DNA of 63,981 nucleotides, the filler included, from Candidatus Woesearchaeota archaeon (GTDB lineage: Archaea > Nanobdellota > Nanobdellia > Woesearchaeales > WJIZ01): assembly GCA_018221205.1 (NCBI GenBank). It is 7 parts of 7 records of this genome, joined end to end, with 100 filler letters (N's around TTAATTAATTAA, not from the genome) between each part and the next. Parts side by side here need not be neighbours in the genome. Positions count along the whole stretch, not along the records: positions 55,613 to 61,528 come from JAAOYF010000011.1; 6 more parts are not named here. One strand, written 5' to 3'. The notes beneath the pieces are model-generated. The model was not told the origin of the DNA and did no database searches. It saw nothing but the letters and a program-made list of their open reading frames with translations. Below, one piece after another: positions 6,525 to 61,528 of the stretch; position 1 is the stretch's first letter; every line of letters starts with the position of its first letter. The translations under genes were made by a program, and so were the position numbers.

Positions 6525-6604
6525 GTAGCCGCGTAAAAATATTTCTAAGAAGTCGACCTAAAGGTCGGGGAATTAAACCCCTGTGCTCGCTACGCTCGCA
6601 TTAA
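6525..6604 (+). repeat. 80-nt multicopy element end, copy 1 (IS200/IS605-like end or MITE)
   Basis: Near-identical to 55615-55694 and to the reverse complement of 61449-61528. Contains hairpin CGACCT-aa-AGGTCG and always lies at a contig end. Confidence 0.8.
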
Positions 6605-6607
6605 AGA

Positions 6608-6715
6608 AAGCCGCGTAATGGGGCTTTAGCCCCATCTTGCGTGTCAAGAATCGAAGATTCTTGATCATGATCAGAAATCTCTGATTTCTGACATGCCAAC
6701 CGAGCGTAACCAGTT
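6608..6715 (-). mobile_element. Cluster of nested small hairpin elements
   Basis: Hairpins ATGGGGC/GCCCCAT, TCAAGAATC/GATTCTTGA and TCAGAAATC/GATTTCTGA; the latter two are bounded by CAYG tetramers. 18-nt identity to tRNA-Gly intron 2. Confidence 0.55.
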
Positions 6716-21680: not shown

Positions 21681-21781
21681 AGCGGGGTAGGGCAGCCAGG
21701 AGTGCCCGGAGGGCTCATAACCCTCAGGTCAGTGGAAGCAGATGGAGAGGCTGCTGCTGAATTCAAATCCACTCCCCGCTA
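21681..21781 (+). tRNA. Initiator tRNA-Met(CAT) with a 26-nt non-canonical intron at 53/54 (21736-21761)
   Basis: AGCGGGG/CCCCGCT acceptor with A1-U72, three G-C pairs in the anticodon stem, CAT at 21716-21718. BHB has a CAGT/GCTG helix with GG^A and AA^T bulges. Confidence 0.93.
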
Positions 21782-22501
21782 TTATCCTCTCCATTTCTTG
21801 ATTTTATTAAGGTGCTTTGGCGAATCAAACCCTATAAGATCGAGCCATTGCTGCAAGTTTTTTTGGCCATTTAATTCAATTCGATTAATCGTCGTGAACC
21901 CTCTCTCTATACGTTTATCCTTAACATTGTAATCGTAAATTTCAACAATAGAAAAACCCCATTTTTTGAGGAGAACCGAAACTTGCATAATAAGCATTTT
22001 ACTTTTGGATGAAAGGGTAATAACAGGATAATATGGCACTTTTCTATACTTCTTCTTAAATGAAATGCACCCATCAGTATCAAAAATTCCCTTTACTACA
22101 GATTTCGTGAATCTTTTGTTTTCAATAAATATATGAGGAATGTGAAGATTCAACCCCTTTTTACCTTCCCATAGGTTAAGTGTGTTCGTGAGGAAAATGT
22201 ATAAAGATTTTGAATATAAACGGAAACCATAAGTAGTCGAATTATCATGATATCTCATATTTGGTGAAATGCCAAAAAGATCTTTAACAATTGGATTCAA
22301 AATTTCATCATAAAACTGCATTTCGTCTTTTGGATTCCCTACACATTTTATTGAATACTCATTCTTGTAAGGACGGTACTGGATATTCCCATCACCGATT
22401 AAAATTCCGATGAAATAGGCCAGCTTAGTTGATAATGTAGATGGTAGAATGATTCCTCTTTGTTTATCTTTGTTGCTTAGAGGGTAAATTCTCAATTCCA
22501 T
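21782..22501 (-). CDS. Free-standing two-motif LAGLIDADG endonuclease
   Basis: LAYFIGILIGDG and VVKGIFDTDG; AT-rich; stop codon abuts the tRNA discriminator base. Confidence 0.9.
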   Translation of the reverse strand: MELRIYPLSNKDKQRGIILPSTLSTKLAYFIGILIGDGNIQYRPYKNEYSIKCVGNPKDEMQFYDEILNPIVKDLFGISPNMRYHDNSTTYGFRLYSKSLYIFLTNTLNLWEGKKGLNLHIPHIFIENKRFTKSVVKGIFDTDGCISFKKKYRKVPYYPVITLSSKSKMLIMQVSVLLKKWGFSIVEIYDYNVKDKRIERGFTTINRIELNGQKNLQQWLDLIGFDSPKHLNKIKKWRG

Positions 22502-22531
22502 TTTTTCTATCTAATGAGAAAGATGGAATTG
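22493..22531 (-). promoter_or_regulatory. Hairpin occluding the LAGLIDADG start codon
   Basis: CAATTCCAT/ATGGAATTG 9-bp stem includes the ATG; TATA-like TTTAAATA lies just upstream. Confidence 0.6.
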
Positions 22532-22558
22532 TATTTAAATTTACCCGTATAGACAAAG

Positions 22559-22579
22559 TTCAAATCCACTCCCCACTAT
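22559..22579 (+). repeat. Degenerate duplicate of the tRNA-iMet 3' exon
   Basis: TTCAAATCCACTCCCCACTAT versus 21762-21782 TTCAAATCCACTCCCCGCTAT (20/21). Confidence 0.9.
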
Positions 22580-30407: not shown

Positions 30408-30596
30408 ATGAAAGGCAAAAAGGGATATGTCATGGCTGGAGCTGGTTTCTTTATGATTATCGTCAATGCCCTTGATTATCTTTTGGGATGGGATATAGAA
30501 TTCACTCCTTTGCTCATCATCGGATTGGTTTTGGTTGTTGTAGGCATGAATATGGATGACCTCCTCCCCGACTTGAAAGTCGGGGTATCCGCTTAA
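30408..30596 (+). CDS. Small two-TM protein whose C-terminus runs into an IS end
   Basis: Hydrophobic ORF; the last ~12 codons are read from the IS hairpin. Confidence 0.55.
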   Translation: MKGKKGYVMAGAGFFMIIVNALDYLLGWDIEFTPLLIIGLVLVVVGMNMDDLLPDLKVGVSA

Positions 30597-30637
30597 GCTT
30601 CTGCGTGGTGTTGTTCTTGATTTACTATGTACTTGAA
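30556..30637 (-). mobile_element. tnpA: IS200/IS605-family element: tnpA 3' end and right end, truncated by gap
   Basis: Minus strand 30637-30593 reads FKYIVNQEQHHAEA* (Y1 transposase YIxNQ motif), followed by hairpin CCCCGACT/AGTCGGGG (30566-30585) and GGTCA. Confidence 0.8.
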
Positions 30638-54874: not shown

Positions 54875-54956
54875 AGAGGTCTTTCGAAATTATTTCGGAA
54901 ATTGCACTGGACAAAAATTCTTCTCACGTGGGATTTAAAAACAGTAGCCTGTTCTG

Positions 54957-55079
54957 AAAAAGAGGACACGCTCACCTGCTAAATTGTGATTTCCGGTTTA
55001 ACCAGAAATCACTTAGGCAGGTTCGCTCAATGTCCTCTTTTTCGTTGCTCCAAAGATCCAGCAATGGAGATCTTTGGAG
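54957..55079 (+). ncRNA. Conserved two-hairpin leader of a LAGLIDADG gene, copy A
   Basis: 86-nt hairpin, 5-nt spacer and 32-nt hairpin burying the GGAG of the GGAGGTG RBS; aligns without gaps to copy B with compensatory changes. Confidence 0.7.
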
Positions 55080-55089
55080 GTGTTTTGAA

Positions 55090-55512
55090 ATGAATTTATC
55101 AACAGATGAAAAATTGGCTGAGCTGATTGGTATTATGTTAGGGGATGGATGTCTTTGCAGAACTGCAAGACAAAGGCTTATCTATATTTGCGGACACAAG
55201 ACTGATGATTGCGAATACCATACTACTATTACTGCAAAACTCTTTAAAGACATTTTCAACAAGGAGATTAAAATCCATTTCAGAAATAATGTAAATGTTG
55301 TTTACATTAAATTCAGTGATAAGGAAATCTTCAGAACACTTCGTTCTTTACAGATACCGGTCGGAAAGAAATATAATTACTTACGCATTCCGGTTTGCAT
55401 TAATTCAGACAAGCTATTTTGTTCTTTAATGAGGGGGTTATTTGATACTGATGGTTGTGTCGTACTAAGTAGGCAACATAGAGAGAATCCTTACTATCCA
55501 AGATTAGAGATA
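55090..55512 (+). CDS. Two-motif LAGLIDADG endonuclease, 3' truncated by gap
   Basis: LAELIGIMLGDG and LMRGLFDTDG; shares GKK and PYYP with 21782-22501. Confidence 0.88.
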
Positions 55513-55614
55513 NNNNNNNNNNNNNNNNNNNNNNNNNNNNNNNNNNNNNNNNNNNNTTAATTAATTAANNNNNNNNNNNNNNNNNNNNNNNNNNNNNNNN
55601 NNNNNNNNNNNNGC

Positions 55615-55694
55615 GTAGCCGCGTAAAAGTATTTCTAAGAAGTCGACCTAAAGGTCGGGGAATTAAACCCCTGTGCTCGCTACGCTCGCATTAA
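55615..55694 (+). repeat. 80-nt multicopy element end, copy 2
   Basis: One mismatch to 6525-6604. Confidence 0.85.
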
Positions 55695-55815
55695 GATATG
55701 GAAGGTATTTCTTATAGTATCTTTAGTCTACTGTACTGCTCATAGGCTAGGTTAAATAGAGGAAATAGAAGAAATACGGAACGTTAAGCTTATAAAGAAA
55801 ATAACTGTTCCAACC

Positions 55816-55900
55816 TTCATGCCAACGTCGCATACTCAAAAATCTTTGTCGATTTTTGGTCGCGTCTAGACATTCACTTCGTTCATGCCAACGTCGCATA
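55816..55900 (+). repeat. 19-nt direct repeat of the tRNA-Ser 5' end flanking a 47-nt hairpin insert
   Basis: TTCATGCCAACGTCGCATA at 55816-55834 and 55882-55900; the insert holds CAAAAATC/GATTTTTG. Confidence 0.85.
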
Positions 55901-55970
55901 ACCTGGTATTGCGCCAGCTTGGAAAGCTGGTTTCCGCAAGGATATCCCGGTTCAAATCCGGGCGTTGGCG
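55887..55970 (+). tRNA. tRNA-Ser(GGA)
   Basis: GCCAACG/CGTTGGC acceptor, CCAGC-TTGGAAA-GCTGG anticodon arm, long variable arm, G73. Confidence 0.95.
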
Positions 55971-55972
55971 TT

Positions 55973-56521
55973 TTAGAATTCTTCTGTGTTTATGATCTCG
56001 GCATTATACCAGTATTTGTACTCGTCGAATGTTGCTTTCTTGAATATGCCGATAGCGTCTTTGATTGCTGTTATGTAGAAACCTTTCATGAATGCTGATC
56101 TCATGGTTGTATCGACGCAGCCATCAGCGTAGAATCCTGCAAAAAATAATTTTTCAATGTTATTATCTTTCAGATATTTTTCTAATTCTGGATTGGAGAA
56201 TCCGTCATAGAGATGCTTGATCATAATTTTGTTATCTTTTGGATCGAACATGAGCTCTGATCCTGGACTGTCTTCTGAACATAATTCTTCTGTTCCATCT
56301 CTCTTATATCTTTCATAGACATTCTTCGGCCAATGCTTCTTTCCGTAGATTGATTTTATGAAAATAATTGGAATGTCTCGCTTTCTTGCTTTGTCAACCA
56401 CTGCCTGTATGTTCTTGAGAACTTTTGGATAATTCGAAACGTCCAGGCCTTTCTTCGCTGATAATCCTTCTTCTGCGCAGAAATCCTTTTGCACGTCAAT
56501 AACCAGGAGTGCTTCCTTCAT
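55973..56521 (-). CDS. Isochorismatase/cysteine hydrolase family protein
   Basis: LLVIDVQKDF, K..YDGF and CVDTT motifs. Confidence 0.88.
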   Translation of the reverse strand: MKEALLVIDVQKDFCAEEGLSAKKGLDVSNYPKVLKNIQAVVDKARKRDIPIIFIKSIYGKKHWPKNVYERYKRDGTEELCSEDSPGSELMFDPKDNKIMIKHLYDGFSNPELEKYLKDNNIEKLFFAGFYADGCVDTTMRSAFMKGFYITAIKDAIGIFKKATFDEYKYWYNAEIINTEEF

Positions 56522-56572
56522 ATGTTTGTAGAATAGGAATAGCTATATAAATATTCGCGAATCCATGCTTTC

Positions 56573-57481
56573 ATGAAGATCCTCATTATGGGTGCGGGTG
56601 CGTTCGGCACAGCTATCGGCGGATTTTTAGCTAAAGAGCATGATATCATTCTAGTGGGTAGAGAAAAGTATATGGAACCTATCCGAAAGAACGGATTGAA
56701 AGTAAGCGGCGTTCTTGGTGAATTCACTGTCAAAAATATTCGGGCTGAATCTTCTGTTCCCAAAGAAGAACAAGAACTGATTATCCTGACGACGAAATCT
56801 CAGGATACAAAGCAAGCAGCAGAGCAGATGAAGCCTGCTGTCGGCAAAACTGCTATTCTTAGTTTACAAAATGGTGTTGGAAATGAAGAAGTTTTACAAG
56901 AGATTCATGGTGAAGACAAAGTCTTGGGAGGAATAGCTATGATGGGGTTTGAGATTGTCAAGCCAGGAGAGGTCAAAGTAACTGCAGTGGGAGATCATAT
57001 GAAGATCGGCGAGATGGATGGAAAGATGACCGAACGAATAAAGAAAATCGCAGAGGTCTTCACTGATGTAGGTATTGAGACAGATGCAGTGGATAACATC
57101 AAGCACCATATCTGGACTAAATTGATGTATAACTGCGCCTTGAACTCGACAAGCGCTTTGTTTGGTGTGGAATATGGCAAATTACGCAATGAATATGCCT
57201 GGAAGATCGTCAATGATATCATCAAAGAAGTGTTTTTGGTTGCAGAGAAGAAGAATATCAAGCTCAATTGGAAAGATCATAAAGAAATGGTCGGTTTTTT
57301 GGATCAAGTATTGAAAAAAGTAGGCAAACATCGGGCTTCGATGCTGCAAGACTTGGAATTAGGAAGAAAGACTGAGATAGATTTCTTGAATGGAAAAGTT
57401 GTTGAGTATGGGAAAGAAATTGGAATAAAAACGCCAGTGAATGAGATTCTTTGGAATTTGATCAAATTTCGGGAGAATTAA
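56573..57481 (+). CDS. panE: Ketopantoate reductase
   Basis: GAGAFG, LQNG, W.KL..N and SMLQD..GRKTEID motifs. Confidence 0.9.
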   Translation: MKILIMGAGAFGTAIGGFLAKEHDIILVGREKYMEPIRKNGLKVSGVLGEFTVKNIRAESSVPKEEQELIILTTKSQDTKQAAEQMKPAVGKTAILSLQNGVGNEEVLQEIHGEDKVLGGIAMMGFEIVKPGEVKVTAVGDHMKIGEMDGKMTERIKKIAEVFTDVGIETDAVDNIKHHIWTKLMYNCALNSTSALFGVEYGKLRNEYAWKIVNDIIKEVFLVAEKKNIKLNWKDHKEMVGFLDQVLKKVGKHRASMLQDLELGRKTEIDFLNGKVVEYGKEIGIKTPVNEILWNLIKFREN

Positions 57482-57514
57482 TGTTTCACTACTTGTGGTC
57501 ACAAGAATAATGAG

Positions 57515-57618
57515 TGGACTGGCCGGGATTTGAACCCGGAGCCTCACCGCAATTGGGAATGGAGACAAACCTCCTATTCTTGCCAGCGGCGCGTTATACC
57601 AGATTTAACTACCAGCCC
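57515..57618 (-). tRNA. tRNA-Ala(GGC) with a 30-nt intron at 37/38 (57551-57580)
   Basis: GGGCTGG/CCAGTCC acceptor with G3-U70, C32-G38, anticodon GGC and a BHB-like intron. Confidence 0.9.
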
Positions 57619-58361
57619 AAACGTTCTGCTTTGAAAGGTCGGATATCCTTTAAAAACCTTGTGACGCTTTCTTGATGAAGTTGAAAACAATATCGCTTCT
57701 TCCATTTTTTGTGTTGTTGAGAATAATAACTATAGGAGTATCCAAAATCAACGAGTATGGTTTTTACCTGTCTAGCTAGACCTTCGCTAGTTGTATTGAA
57801 GCTAATGCGGATTCTGTTCTCTTTTTTCTTATATAATATGCTTCCATCTGTATCAAATAATCCTTTAACAAACCCCCTTTTGAATGATTTGGATACATCC
57901 ATTATCTTTAATTTAACTGTAGAGTGTTTAGATGTGGAATCATAATCTAAGAAATGAGAAAAGTATTCAAATAAAGCTTTTGAATATGTTCTAACTCGAA
58001 AGGTGTGTGCATCTTCACTGATGTGAAATTTTCTTTGAAAATGTTTTTCGAATAATTGTTTCACATACAATAAATAATCATTATTAACTTTGCCGACATG
58101 AACATTGATAGTATATTGATAATTCTTTGGATAAAAATATTGGCTCCCGTCTCCAGCAAAAATTCCCATTATTTCACCTGTTTGTTTGGTATAAGATATT
58201 TGAAATTTTGTGGGGGATTTTTTGTATGATGGATCGACGCCCAAGTACTTTATGGCCGTGTTTTTAGAGATTTTTAAGTCTCGGCAGATTGTTCTTTTTG
58301 AAAATCCTCTTCTCGACAGATATTTTATCTTTTGTAATTTCTCAACTGATATTTTATTCAT
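57609..58361 (-). CDS. LAGLIDADG endonuclease with N-terminal HTH
   Basis: GFSKRTICRDLKISKNTA HTH; GEIMGIFAGDG and FVKGLFDTDG; stop codon lies inside the tRNA-Ala 5' end. Confidence 0.9.
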   Translation of the reverse strand: MNKISVEKLQKIKYLSRRGFSKRTICRDLKISKNTAIKYLGVDPSYKKSPTKFQISYTKQTGEIMGIFAGDGSQYFYPKNYQYTINVHVGKVNNDYLLYVKQLFEKHFQRKFHISEDAHTFRVRTYSKALFEYFSHFLDYDSTSKHSTVKLKIMDVSKSFKRGFVKGLFDTDGSILYKKKENRIRISFNTTSEGLARQVKTILVDFGYSYSYYSQQHKKWKKRYCFQLHQESVTRFLKDIRPFKAERLGW

Positions 58362-58369
58362 AATTCCAC

Positions 58370-58492
58370 CTCCAAAGTTTTCGTGTTTTGAAACTTTGGA
58401 GCTCTTAAAAAGAGAACAATGAGCAAAACAGCATAATTGATTTTAGGCTTTGCCGAAAATCATTATTTAGCTGTTTTGCGTGTTCTCTTTTT
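58370..58492 (-). ncRNA. Conserved two-hairpin leader of a LAGLIDADG gene, copy B
   Basis: Hairpin 1 at 58407-58492 and hairpin 2 at 58370-58401; same lengths as copy A. Confidence 0.7.
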
Positions 58493-58556
58493 TGTAACAA
58501 GGACTTCTATATATGTCTAATCGAACAATAACCGAAAGAAATTTGACTTAAAAAGG

Positions 58557-58584
58557 GTGTTATACCAGGTTTAACTACTGGCCC
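58557..58584 (-). pseudogene. Degenerate tRNA-Ala 5' fragment (acceptor 5' strand plus D arm)
   Basis: GGGCCAGTAGTTAAACCTGGTATAACAC versus GGGCTGGTAGTTAAATCTGGTATAACGC (24/28); TATA-like box about 25 nt upstream. Confidence 0.85.
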
Positions 58585-58622
58585 AGACCTCTAAAGAACC
58601 TCTGAACCATATAAAAAAGTAT

Positions 58623-58835
58623 CTACTTCACTGCAATCTTAATATCCTTTCCTTGGACAGTCTTCCGTCCAGAGTGCTTCGCAATCTTGATGGCTCTCTC
58701 GCTTGTCTTGGTCCCATAATTGATCAGGTATTCGACTAATTCCTCGACTGCCCCATCAGCTACTCTTTTCGCGCCTGTTTTCTGCATTATCTTAGCGATC
58801 GGTGCTTTTGGAATAGTGCTTCCTGGTCTTGGCAT
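58623..58835 (-). CDS. Archaeal histone
   Basis: IPKAPI..I..GAKRV, A..IAKHSGRKTV..KDI. Confidence 0.92.
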   Translation of the reverse strand: MPRPGSTIPKAPIAKIMQKTGAKRVADGAVEELVEYLINYGTKTSERAIKIAKHSGRKTVQGKDIKIAVK

Positions 58836-58896
58836 TGTTCCACCTCAATAACAAAATTTCGCTGGGTTTATAATCATTTACTTCAGTGCGAAATTT

Positions 58897-60375
58897 TCAA
58901 TAATCGATGATATCCATCTCATCGACAACTTGTTTGACATAATCAATCTTGCTTTTGCTTCCTGCATAGACCGTAAACAGTCTTTTGCCTTTGCGAACAG
59001 TATCGCCAATATGCTTGTATAGATAGATGCCTGCACCTTTGGTCTGGGGGGCGCCAGCAATACGGGCAAGCTTCGCAATAAGGAGATTATCTATTGCCCG
59101 TATTCTTCCTGATTTCTGAGCAATGACATCATATTCAAAAGGCGCTAAAGGAATCTCTTCAGTCTTGATATTAGGATTACCGCCCTGCAACTTGATGATC
59201 TCTTTCATCTTTTCATACGCTTTTCCTGAAGAAAGGATCTGTTTTGCCAATGCCCTTCCATTCTTCCTGCCTATTAATTTGAAGAAATCTGCTGCCATCG
59301 TGATACATTTCCTTTCAAGATCAAGGGGCCTATCAGGACGTTGTTTGAGTACTTTCAGCACATCTCTCGCTTCCAATGCCGGTCCTAATCCATTGCCTAT
59401 AGGCTGCCTGCCGTCAGTCAACACAACTTTGATCTTCATGCCTAGCCGTGTACCGATTTGTAAGAATTTCCTTTTCAGATGCGAAGCTTTCTTCGTATTG
59501 GTTATTTTAGTATTTGGACCTATAGGGATATCAATGATGACATGAGAACTGCTTACCGAATTCTTTTTAGCAAGGATAGAAGCTAACAACTGGCTTTCCG
59601 CATCTATCATCAAAGGCTTTTCCACACTGATGATCTTATCGTCTGCAGGCGCTAATCGTAAAGCGCCTCCCCAGACAATGCATCCTTTTGCTTTCTTGAT
59701 GATCTTCTTCATCTTTGGAAGGGGAAAGACAACATCAGCAAGAACTTCCATCGTATCTGCAGTCCCGGCTGGACTGGTGATCGCCCTACTACTCGTTTTT
59801 GGCATGACATATCCTGCTGCTGCCATGATAGGGACAAGGATCATGGTCGTCCTGTTGCCAGGTATGCCTCCGATTGAATGCTTATCGATGACAATCTTGC
59901 TGTCGATATGAAGCCTATCTCCTTCCTTCACCATCGCTTTTGTCAAAAGCAGAGTCTCTTCCAGCGTATTCGGATTGCAGTAGCTTCCCGCAACAAAGAA
60001 GGTCAGCTCGACCTGGCTTAATTTATTATGGACAATGTCCCACACCAGCTGGTCAATCTCCTTTTTCGTGAGATGCTCACCATCCAGTTTCTTCTTGATA
60101 TAATCGATAGAAAGCGGTTTTTTAGCCAGCCGTATCCTCACCACATCCTTATTCTTCAGCTTTAGGGACGCAAGGACCTCATCATACACACCGATGAATC
60201 CTTTCGGGATAAGCGATTCGGTAATGTCGATGACAGCAGTCTCGATCTGTCCATTATAGAATATCTTGATACGATCAGCAGCATGCAAGTCAAGGACCTC
60301 TGCATCCTTCTCGTTGATGATAGCGACCAACGGACCCCCTGTTTCGGTCTTGAGGTGCTTAACCCTGAGCTTCAA
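58897..60375 (-). CDS. AMP phosphorylase (thymidine phosphorylase family)
   Basis: N-terminal beta-barrel extension; DKHSIGGIPGN, KTSSRAITS.AGTAD and APADD motifs. Confidence 0.92.
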   Translation of the reverse strand: MKLRVKHLKTETGGPLVAIINEKDAEVLDLHAADRIKIFYNGQIETAVIDITESLIPKGFIGVYDEVLASLKLKNKDVVRIRLAKKPLSIDYIKKKLDGEHLTKKEIDQLVWDIVHNKLSQVELTFFVAGSYCNPNTLEETLLLTKAMVKEGDRLHIDSKIVIDKHSIGGIPGNRTTMILVPIMAAAGYVMPKTSSRAITSPAGTADTMEVLADVVFPLPKMKKIIKKAKGCIVWGGALRLAPADDKIISVEKPLMIDAESQLLASILAKKNSVSSSHVIIDIPIGPNTKITNTKKASHLKRKFLQIGTRLGMKIKVVLTDGRQPIGNGLGPALEARDVLKVLKQRPDRPLDLERKCITMAADFFKLIGRKNGRALAKQILSSGKAYEKMKEIIKLQGGNPNIKTEEIPLAPFEYDVIAQKSGRIRAIDNLLIAKLARIAGAPQTKGAGIYLYKHIGDTVRKGKRLFTVYAGSKSKIDYVKQVVDEMDIIDY

Positions 60376-61399
60376 TTTCTTCCTCGTAGATCTTCAAGAA
60401 CACCATGGAGATGGAAAGGACAACCGGCCCGATGATGATACCGATAGGCCCGAAGAGGATGATGCCCCCTATAACACCTAGGAGTATGAAGACAGGATGT
60501 ACTTTTGCCTTGTCTGCAACAATTTTCGGCCTCACAAAATTGTCTGCGGTGCTGATGATAAGGCCCGCAATCAAGAGGCCTATTGCCTGACCAGGATGAT
60601 TCGTCAATGCCTTGATGATGACAGCAGGGACCCAGATGATAGGAGTCCCCATAAAAGGGACCAAAGCAAAGAAGAACATGGCTATTCCCCACAATATCGG
60701 AGAGGTAACACCAAAGATCGCAAATGCTATCCCTCCTAGCAGTCCTTGTCCGGCACTTATCAGAAGTTGGCCGTAGATGACAGCATACGTGACATCCTTA
60801 AGCTGGCCGATGATGTTCTTGCTATGTATCTTTTTGAGCGGAAGCAGATGTTTCACTTTATACATCAGGGATTCGCCTTCCTGAAGCAGATAGAAGACGA
60901 TGAAGATCATGATGAAGAAATGCAGGAAAAATATAGGTATGGAAAAGATGAAGTCGCTTGCTATGTTGATGAAGAAATCGGTTATCCGCTTGGTGAAATT
61001 GGTGAGAAGATTCTTGACTTGGGTATCAGTGACATATTTCTCGATGAAACCAGACAGATTACACAAGAGGGCATTTCCGCAATCCTCTCCTCCGATGTTT
61101 CCGGTCGCAAGAATCTGCTTGATGAAGATATAGTTGGTTGTTGCCTCCTCAGCTATGGTGTTGGTGATAAAGAAGATAGGTATGACGAACAATACCACGA
61201 TCGCCGCAGAGACGATGAGGGCAGAAATGAATTCCTTTTTGATATATTTCCGCAGAAATTTGTGCAGAGGATAGAAGAGATACGCAACCACAAAGCTTGC
61301 TAAGATCGTGCTGATGAATGGTTTCACGATGAGAAAAGTGAGGATGACGACTATGGCAAGCATCGCATAGAATGCGTATCGAGAAAGGTTCTTGGTCAT
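60359..61399 (-). CDS. AI-2E family transporter
   Basis: AYLFYP, DNFVRP, HP..LLGVIGG and GP motifs. Confidence 0.9.
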   Translation of the reverse strand: MTKNLSRYAFYAMLAIVVILTFLIVKPFISTILASFVVAYLFYPLHKFLRKYIKKEFISALIVSAAIVVLFVIPIFFITNTIAEEATTNYIFIKQILATGNIGGEDCGNALLCNLSGFIEKYVTDTQVKNLLTNFTKRITDFFINIASDFIFSIPIFFLHFFIMIFIVFYLLQEGESLMYKVKHLLPLKKIHSKNIIGQLKDVTYAVIYGQLLISAGQGLLGGIAFAIFGVTSPILWGIAMFFFALVPFMGTPIIWVPAVIIKALTNHPGQAIGLLIAGLIISTADNFVRPKIVADKAKVHPVFILLGVIGGIILFGPIGIIIGPVVLSISMVFLKIYEEEIEAQG

Positions 61400-61448
61400 G
61401 TAAAAAAACAAGTAGAGAATATATATAAAGGTTATGGACAACAGTTTT

Positions 61449-61528
61449 TTAATGCGAGCGTAGCGAGCACAGGGGTTTAATTCCCCGACCTTTAGGTCGA
61501 CTTCTTAGAAATATTTTTACGCGGCTAC
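61449..61528 (-). repeat. 80-nt multicopy element end, copy 3
   Basis: Reverse complement of 6525-6604. Confidence 0.85.

Follow-up and report, generated by a model that had tools for sequence, protein, structure and literature searches.

Between a degenerate copy of the 5′ end of a tRNA-Ala(GGC) gene and the intact gene itself, this archaeal chromosome carries a leader and a gene for a LAGLIDADG protein, the stop codon of which is nucleotides 8-10 of the tRNA. The reading that we favour, at a probability of about three in four, is that the whole is a free-standing homing-endonuclease cassette, and that such cassettes spread through intronless homing by tRNA-isotype-specific nucleases. The cassette is likely one of a family of selfish genes whose enzyme lineages each go with a single kind of tRNA.

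Anatomy of the cassette

The window, to which all positions refer, is the whole stretch of DNA that was analysed, 63,981 nucleotides. The cassette lies within contig C39 (window 55613-61528), with all its parts on the minus strand and clear of the N gaps. The host assembly (1.28 Mb, 74 contigs) is 95% complete by markers. As a separate observation on it, repeat families of ~80 nt lie at many contig ends, including 55613-55696, 61440-61528, 6525-6609 and 30552-30637, and these repeats probably break the assembly.

Along the minus strand come, in turn, AMP phosphorylase, histone, TATA-like box, remnant, T5 run, leader, nuclease ORF and tRNA-Ala(GGC) (Table 1). An earlier note, made from this DNA alone, had described a tRNA-Ala 5′ fragment behind a TATA-like box, and it is indeed there, the box at 58616-58609 being likely, from its sequence and position, the original tRNA promoter. 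The fragment is real, though the 28 nt then assigned to it, which match at 24/28, are here delimited as 26 nt (23/26). With up to 5 mismatches allowed, the 1.28-Mb genome holds no other second match to the tRNA 5′ end. The complete tRNA-Ala(GGC) with an intron at 37/38 was also correctly seen, and the limits of that intron, 30 nt, were set against the anticodon-intronless alleles of relatives. Pairing of the remnant with the 3′ strand of the tRNA leaves two adjacent acceptor mismatches, at positions 5 and 6, which upholds both the contention that the two could not form a full acceptor stem and the contention that this is not one giant intron. A giant BHB intron encoding the nuclease was accordingly rejected as its exons do not rejoin into a full cloverleaf. 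Within the cassette there is no integrase gene, the single ORF being LAGLIDADG, and no displaced 3′ remnant was seen by eye downstream of the tRNA-Ala.

Table 1. Parts of the tRNA-Ala cassette and its left flank, in window positions
Feature	Position	Strand	Basis or remark
Archaeal histone gene, left flank	58623..58835	-	Pfam PF00808 E 8e-15; synteny with G001, G004, L316, L325, L287
TATA-like box upstream of remnant	58609..58616	-	sequence; AT-rich boxes at like distance in empty alleles
tRNA-Ala 5′ remnant	58559..58584	-	23/26 identical to the intact gene's first 26 nt
T5 run after remnant	58554-58550	-	
Long leader hairpin	58407..58492	-	fold z -6.98; covariation
Second leader hairpin, over nuclease Shine-Dalgarno	58370..58401	-	fold, covariation; predicted translational brake
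HTH + two-motif LAGLIDADG nuclease ORF, 250 aa	57609..58361	-	Pfam; invariant columns; structure model
Embedded TATA-like box in Phe-Leu-Lys codons	57649..57656	-	starts 38 nt upstream of tRNA +1; codon bias
Intact tRNA-Ala(GGC), G3:U70	57515..57618	-	Rfam 52.6 bits; exons identical to G004 empty-site allele
30-nt intron at 37/38	57551..57580	-	BHB-like fold, one mismatch in 4-bp central helix

Insertion at an ancestral tRNA site

What stands at this place in relatives? Five same-family genomes were searched with AMP phosphorylase. In two genomes of the family the histone stop codon is followed by an unbroken tRNA-Ala(GGC), at 37 nt in G001 and at 48 nt in G004, and the remnant here begins 38 nt past the histone stop, i.e., where these relatives carry the intact tRNA. 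The more distant genomes L316, L325 and L287 have the same empty histone/tRNA-Ala arrangement, and together these five empty alleles bear out the earlier proposal that the element is an insertion at an ancestral tRNA position. Of the other three searched, G005 has a different gene between, and two have no tRNA in the stretch examined. G002, also of the family, is occupied, with a 40%-identical nuclease that ends in an intronless tRNA-Ala beside AMP phosphorylase. Occupation of the site is thus optional, empty in G001 and G004 versus occupied in the present genome (G000) and G002, across genera and not within one population.

Spread of the nuclease is patchy. Among 301 genomes of the order, 17 have a match at E 1e-30, which in 5 of the 17 is better than 1e-80, the Ala lineage is carried by ~5, and at 29 tRNA-matching loci of other genomes of the order (L301-L329) there were 0 nuclease matches. 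Ala-lineage nucleases (L113, L037, L115, L287, L118) are found also at tRNA-Ala(CGC), with one at an AGC anticodon, and in L287 the GGC gene that adjoins the histone is empty.

A family of nucleases at tRNA genes

From two cases at different tRNAs the earlier note had argued for a family rather than an accident, and the wider count agrees. Homologues were recovered with an alignment query of genome contigs, a single-protein query having given none, and those named are from Woesearchaeota and other DPANN groups; viral contigs gave distant matches only (best E 5e-13). A free-standing ORF with at least 60 nt downstream is present at 173 of 190 loci, a set that holds some duplicates, and 128 of these 173 have an ARAGORN tRNA within -150..+120 nt of the stop codon, 93 on the same strand and 35 converging, against a background of 7/900 other ORFs (at least 180 aa, this genome) with a tRNA at the stop. 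Several of the 45 loci without an ARAGORN tRNA are multi-intron tRNAs that ARAGORN missed. The junction of nuclease with tRNA-Ala recurs in 39 loci from other assemblies, and some members are frameshifted or truncated (L061/L129, L048).

The host genome alone has nine such nuclease genes (ten ORF pieces, two of which join by an 83-nt overlap), of which seven end at tRNAs, one at the start of metK and one beside a duplicated gene end. Remnants are present at six, three found by BLAST and the others partly by eye, and were not seen at three. The metK cassette (G000:C40:1-1250, L334), which places the family at protein genes also, consists of a metK start remnant, an HTH-LAGLIDADG gene and a new metK start that overlaps its stop. 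The mirror-image cassette that had been reported alongside the present one is there too (window 21681-22579, contig C34): its tRNA, initiator tRNA-Met-like, is at 21681-21782 (+), the nuclease ORF at 21785-22510 (-) and a 3′ remnant at 22558-22579, and its nuclease clusters in phylogeny with six more from this tRNA. Another LAGLIDADG cassette, at window 54905-55512, has the promoter box in its standard form together with the leader of the tRNA-Ala cassette; a contig end interrupts it, and the remainder, on C74, stops ~30 nt short of a tRNA.

Whether nuclease phylogeny tracks tRNA identity had been put forward as a check, and it does. Labels were assigned by hand to 136 loci, one without the motif, with unlabelled, duplicate, fused and broken loci excluded, and FastTree was applied to 135 nuclease cores from which the C-terminal run into the tRNA had been removed. 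A single branch, with support 93, sets all 35 Ala rows apart, in a distribution that needs 1 change (31.1 when shuffled, 0/500). His (11 rows), Tyr (7), iMet (7), Phe (5) and Arg (3) likewise need 1 change each, and the 20 groups together 31 versus 94.5 shuffled; Gly, Asp, Pro, Ser, Ile and Trp labels need 2-6, partly from mixed 5′/3′ cassettes. The intermixing in the tree of 5′ and 3′ cassettes of one isotype suggests that the nuclease follows the identity of the tRNA and not the side on which it lies. Within the Ala group, subgroups correspond to host lineages (Micrarchaeota, Aenigmarchaeota, Iainarchaeota), and much of the spread may therefore have taken place inside lineages; long vertical descent would give the same pattern. 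Separately, the members L086, L095, L107 and L091, among the Tyr, Ser and His lineages, are in records titled Patescibacteria, possibly through binning errors.

The nuclease

The ORF matches Pfam LAGLIDADG_3 (E 2.5e-14) and, weakly, an HTH; matches to the WhiA domain are weak and below the cut-off. D71 and D172 are invariant in 31 homologues, and all 36 Ala ORFs checked have both LAGLIDADG motifs. In the structure model, from the 31-row alignment (pLDDT 90.5), residues 6-40 form three helices at the N-terminus, ahead of a LAGLIDADG body of two domains, for which the best structural match is I-DmoI (Foldseek E 3.6e-9, 17% identity). The fold and the two catalytic motifs are those of I-DmoI and of archaeal intron- or intein-encoded monomeric LAGLIDADG nucleases, from which the present protein differs in being encoded outside an intron or intein and in its added N-terminal HTH. 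Its gene is free-standing, with its own start, ribosome site and stop, and the remnant cannot pair as an exon. By analogy with its family, the 250-aa protein would be expected to cut DNA.

Remnants of tRNA genes

A recognisable remnant is not a general feature of these cassettes, contrary to what had been expected of the architecture. A profile search flagged 7/34 Ala upstream regions, of which 5 are true 5′ remnants (this cassette, L111, L113, L041 and L114), 1 is a whole tRNA and 1 a chance match. Where present, 5′ remnants stop at about positions 18-35, none going beyond the anticodon loop, and those of 3′ type extend ~30 nt inward from the tRNA 3′ end. The acceptor strand of the present remnant is a natural variant (L283, L328) that it has in common with the remnant of L114, and L114 is the nearest row to this nuclease in the tree. 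From its sequence, the remnant could be the original gene end after drift, it could come from an older host allele, or it could be an arm that the cassette carries along with it. The cassette may have supplied only a new 5′ end, as the earlier note proposed, or a whole foreign tRNA: in 4/5 Ala cassettes the remnant differs from the downstream tRNA, but the downstream exons here are those of the G004 empty allele.

A different class of insert deserves mention. Small nuclease-free inserts of ~45-75 nt (window 55816-55900; G000:C64:24228-24330) duplicate the first bases of tRNA-Ser(GGA) and tRNA-Pro, 19 and 14 nt respectively. As these also duplicate tRNA 5′ ends, a remnant alone is no proof of nuclease action.

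Leader and predicted embedded promoter

The leader fold (z -6.98, 0/200 shuffles) has no family in Rfam. A profile picks out the leader ahead of nuclease genes whose targets are Ala, Gly, Trp, Thr and others, with three occurrences in the host genome; the profile search was used instead of the short core motif, which alone gave a weak enrichment (19/164 versus 1-10 shuffled). In 16 leaders, 20 of the 36 pairs have two-sided changes (shuffles 8.5, 0/500; slid controls 4-10), a margin that is overstated in that the structure was derived from the same alignment and the rows are related. For the second hairpin the same is true of 7/8 pairs, and in 3/16 rows it does not hold the same ribosome site.

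The end of the nuclease gene appears to do double duty. Phe-Leu/Ile is present 25-44 nt before tRNA +1 in 34/39 Ala nucleases, and 29 of these 34 pairs have the TATA-forming codon versus 11.8 expected, the figure for other F-[LI] pairs being 22/78. Empty alleles have a promoter box at a similar distance from the tRNA. It is predicted that the last codons of the nuclease hold a replacement promoter for the tRNA.

A promoter box in common with repair genes

A 9-nt box upstream of the TATA is present in 54/164 nuclease upstream regions, versus 4 antisense, 2-9 shuffled and 5/131 downstream, and box plus TATA in 37/41 genomes of the order, with 0 for the reversed control. When 30 box loci were taken, one per genome, 7 were before radA or the small gene leading its operon (adjacency to radA was checked in two of the radA-type loci), 9 before UvrA, helicases, PD-(D/E)XK or RNase-H-like nucleases, an integrase or a LAGLIDADG gene, 3 before Bro-N genes and 11 before others or none. 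A loose count gives the box at 16/34 Ala loci, or 15 without a chance match in the histone gene of this window. The present cassette has no standard box, just a partial look-alike abutting an AT-rich box, and the promoter of this copy may be uncoupled or decaying.

The tRNA intron is not part of the design

The earlier note had counted the intron as part of the architecture, which comparison does not support. An N gap breaks one of the 39 Ala-linked tRNAs, which was excluded; the other 38 comprise 16 that are intronless (one of which ends early at a contig end), 14 with an anticodon-loop intron and 8 with introns elsewhere only, by eye. Among 30 unlinked tRNA-Ala genes, a biased set as it was chosen by similarity to the exons of this tRNA, 6 have an anticodon-loop intron and 12 any intron, with Fisher p 0.18 for the former comparison (14/38 versus 6/30) and p 0.22 for the latter. 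Introns are in any case common in the host genome, where 25/33 ARAGORN tRNA calls carry them, and the 16 intronless linked tRNAs have no evident difference from unlinked ones. On these counts collaborative homing was set aside, the nuclease not being consistently intron-linked at its target. The intron as a source of immunity could hold here, not in the 16/38 relatives that are intronless.

Mechanism and alternatives

How might such a cassette spread? The prediction is that the LAGLIDADG protein cleaves tRNA-Ala copies that lack a cassette; recombinational repair from an occupied copy would then paste the cassette in, the host staying viable by virtue of the cassette ending in a complete tRNA-Ala with, it is predicted, its own promoter. 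The cut would be in or near the anticodon arm, to which both the extents of the 5′ and 3′ remnants given above and the presence of single lineages (Trp, Gly, Asp) on either side of the same tRNA kind point. The remnant would be the old 5′ end and possibly the left homology arm. Expression may be damped by the hairpin over the ribosome site and also, when the two genes are co-transcribed, by RNase P, cleavage by which at tRNA +1 would remove the nuclease stop codon. Many members would borrow a host recombination/repair promoter box and so time their expression to DNA repair, though in this copy the box looks degraded. Here the 37/38 intron may protect the tRNA, since its exons equal an empty-site allele; intronless members would need another protection.

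A more ambitious picture, which is tentative and to our minds rather doubtful, would have a DPANN radiation of modular tRNA-replacement homing elements, with an anticodon-arm-specific meganuclease for nearly every isotype, a swappable translation-braking leader, a tRNA promoter in the last codons and a box tying firing to the RadA regulon, in an arms race that drives intron richness and stem turnover and leaves fragments for split tRNAs.

It is unlikely that the nuclease is instead cargo that does not choose its site, with the remnant as an attachment-site or target duplication left at tRNA genes by an integrase or a small (MITE-type) mobile element working in trans. That tRNA genes are integration sites is in its favour, as are the nuclease-free inserts with their duplicated tRNA-Ser and tRNA-Pro 5′ ends in this very genome and, in the part of the source drawn on, the interpretation along such lines of a 5′ fragment and reconstituted tRNA in Caldiarchaeum (PMC3293823). 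However, an integrase is lacking from the cassette, nuclease lineage predicts isotype across phyla, whichever side of the tRNA the nuclease lies on, the same design recurs at metK, and the catalytic residues are invariant. Might the HTH-LAGLIDADG protein be a domesticated factor, vertically inherited, that binds the adjoining tRNA gene or its precursor as a regulator or a maturase, with WhiA and intron maturases as models? The N-terminal HTH and sub-cut-off WhiA-domain matches, the host-lineage subgroups in the tree and a promoter box common to host genes would fit, but such a role is quite improbable given the invariance of both acidic residues, the absence of the gene from the site in same-family genomes with an intact tRNA and its restriction to ~5/301 genomes, and the 16/38 linked tRNAs that have no intron to mature.

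Less credible again is a working exon, by which the remnant would be one half of a split tRNA or the 5′ exon of a giant intron. It does have its own TATA-like box, a T run and a kept D-stem, and split tRNAs exist in Nanoarchaeota according to the part of a preprint used here (10.64898/2026.05.13.725050), yet it has those two adjacent acceptor mismatches with the downstream 3′ strand, a complementary 3′ half was not found in the 95%-complete assembly, and 29/34 Ala cassettes have no remnant at all. Misassembly, a danger that had been recognised from the outset, or chance juxtaposition is scarcely believable. The MAG is fragmented, and among the contigs listed from the sequencing run X1, which may be the source sample, none spans the whole cassette; against that, X1 contigs match 57912-58603 and 57590-57748 with 0 differences and so bridge both junctions, and the junction recurs in the 39 loci of other assemblies. 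In the two sequencing runs compared, neither an empty allele nor a joint across the cassette was seen.

Known systems and significance

A free-standing homing endonuclease with a partial duplicate of its target is known from T4 (PMC2330249, PMC3984707) and from fungal mitochondria (PMC6279837), to judge by the portions of those papers on which this section draws. Closest in some respects is T4 SegB, which cuts tRNA genes and homes, and for which the same two brakes have been proposed, a hairpin at the Shine-Dalgarno sequence and removal of the stop codon when the tRNA is processed (PMC2330249, in part); there also a free-standing nuclease gene beside tRNA genes spreads with the neighbouring tRNAs. 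SegB is, as there described, a GIY-YIG enzyme of a phage that recognises a generic T-loop motif of many tRNAs. The present family, in contrast, is LAGLIDADG, resides in cellular archaeal chromosomes and has single-isotype lineages; the cassette here is inserted into the tRNA, has a remnant beside it and carries an embedded promoter-like box. In collaborative homing (PMC3984707, in part) a free-standing nuclease acts with an ORF-less intron at the target, and that intron could protect the occupied allele, as may hold here; a difference is that the intron here is a BHB-type tRNA intron and absent from many members. The fungal cob and atp6 cases (PMC6279837, in part) have LAGLIDADG ORFs outside introns, between an intact gene and a displaced partial copy, but concern protein genes with C-terminal duplicates, in organelles and with mostly degenerate ORFs, and the portion drawn on describes no isotype radiation.

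Caldiarchaeum subterraneum tRNA-Thr(GGU) has, by the account in part of PMC3293823, a 5′ fragment (positions 1-27), an insert with an 813-bp ORF and a reconstituted tRNA. The ORF likewise immediately precedes the reconstituted tRNA, which has an extra intron, and there are several paralogues per genome; the insert differs in being 1,868 bp at one locus with no family, and its authors read it as a recombinase-bearing element of plasmid derivation. ‘LAGLIDADG’ has 0 occurrences in the text of that source as far as it was available here, and the 813-bp ORF may, by likeness of description, be a member of the family.

In the literature searched, which comprised papers outside subscription, there is no description of a LAGLIDADG family paired by isotype with archaeal tRNAs, nor one of the promoter box, and the available part of the main text of a 2026 preprint on 208 Nanobdellota genomes (10.64898/2026.05.13.725050) has 0 occurrences of ‘homing’ and 0 of ‘LAGLIDADG’. 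The details added here are the embedded TATA-like box, the covarying leader and, in many cassettes, the box shared with radA.

Homing needs empty and occupied alleles in one cell, and a large family of such elements consequently implies that uncultured DPANN archaea, about whose gene flow little is known, routinely exchange DNA and recombine it homologously. The family also offers a testable cause for the abundance of tRNA introns and fragments in DPANN. Moreover, as a set of well over 100 natural monomeric meganucleases, with targets that can be guessed from the adjoining tRNA, it is suited to studying how LAGLIDADG specificity is reprogrammed.

The common promoter box points to a repair regulon exploited by selfish genes. 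Its nearest parallel is the Orc1-2 DNA-damage regulon of Sulfolobus (PMC6061795, in part), where a short motif is likewise present in the promoters of DNA repair genes, though in a different lineage and with 6 nt versus the 9 nt here, and the set here includes selfish nuclease genes. Behind the box in many genomes of the order, the radA operon is led by a conserved gene of 90-110 aa without a Pfam match, for instance G000:C65:52883-53155 (L251:1384-1665). The box is also before a short acidic ORF (~35-50 aa), which in G000 is upstream of Sua5 (C52:10264; L273, L275).
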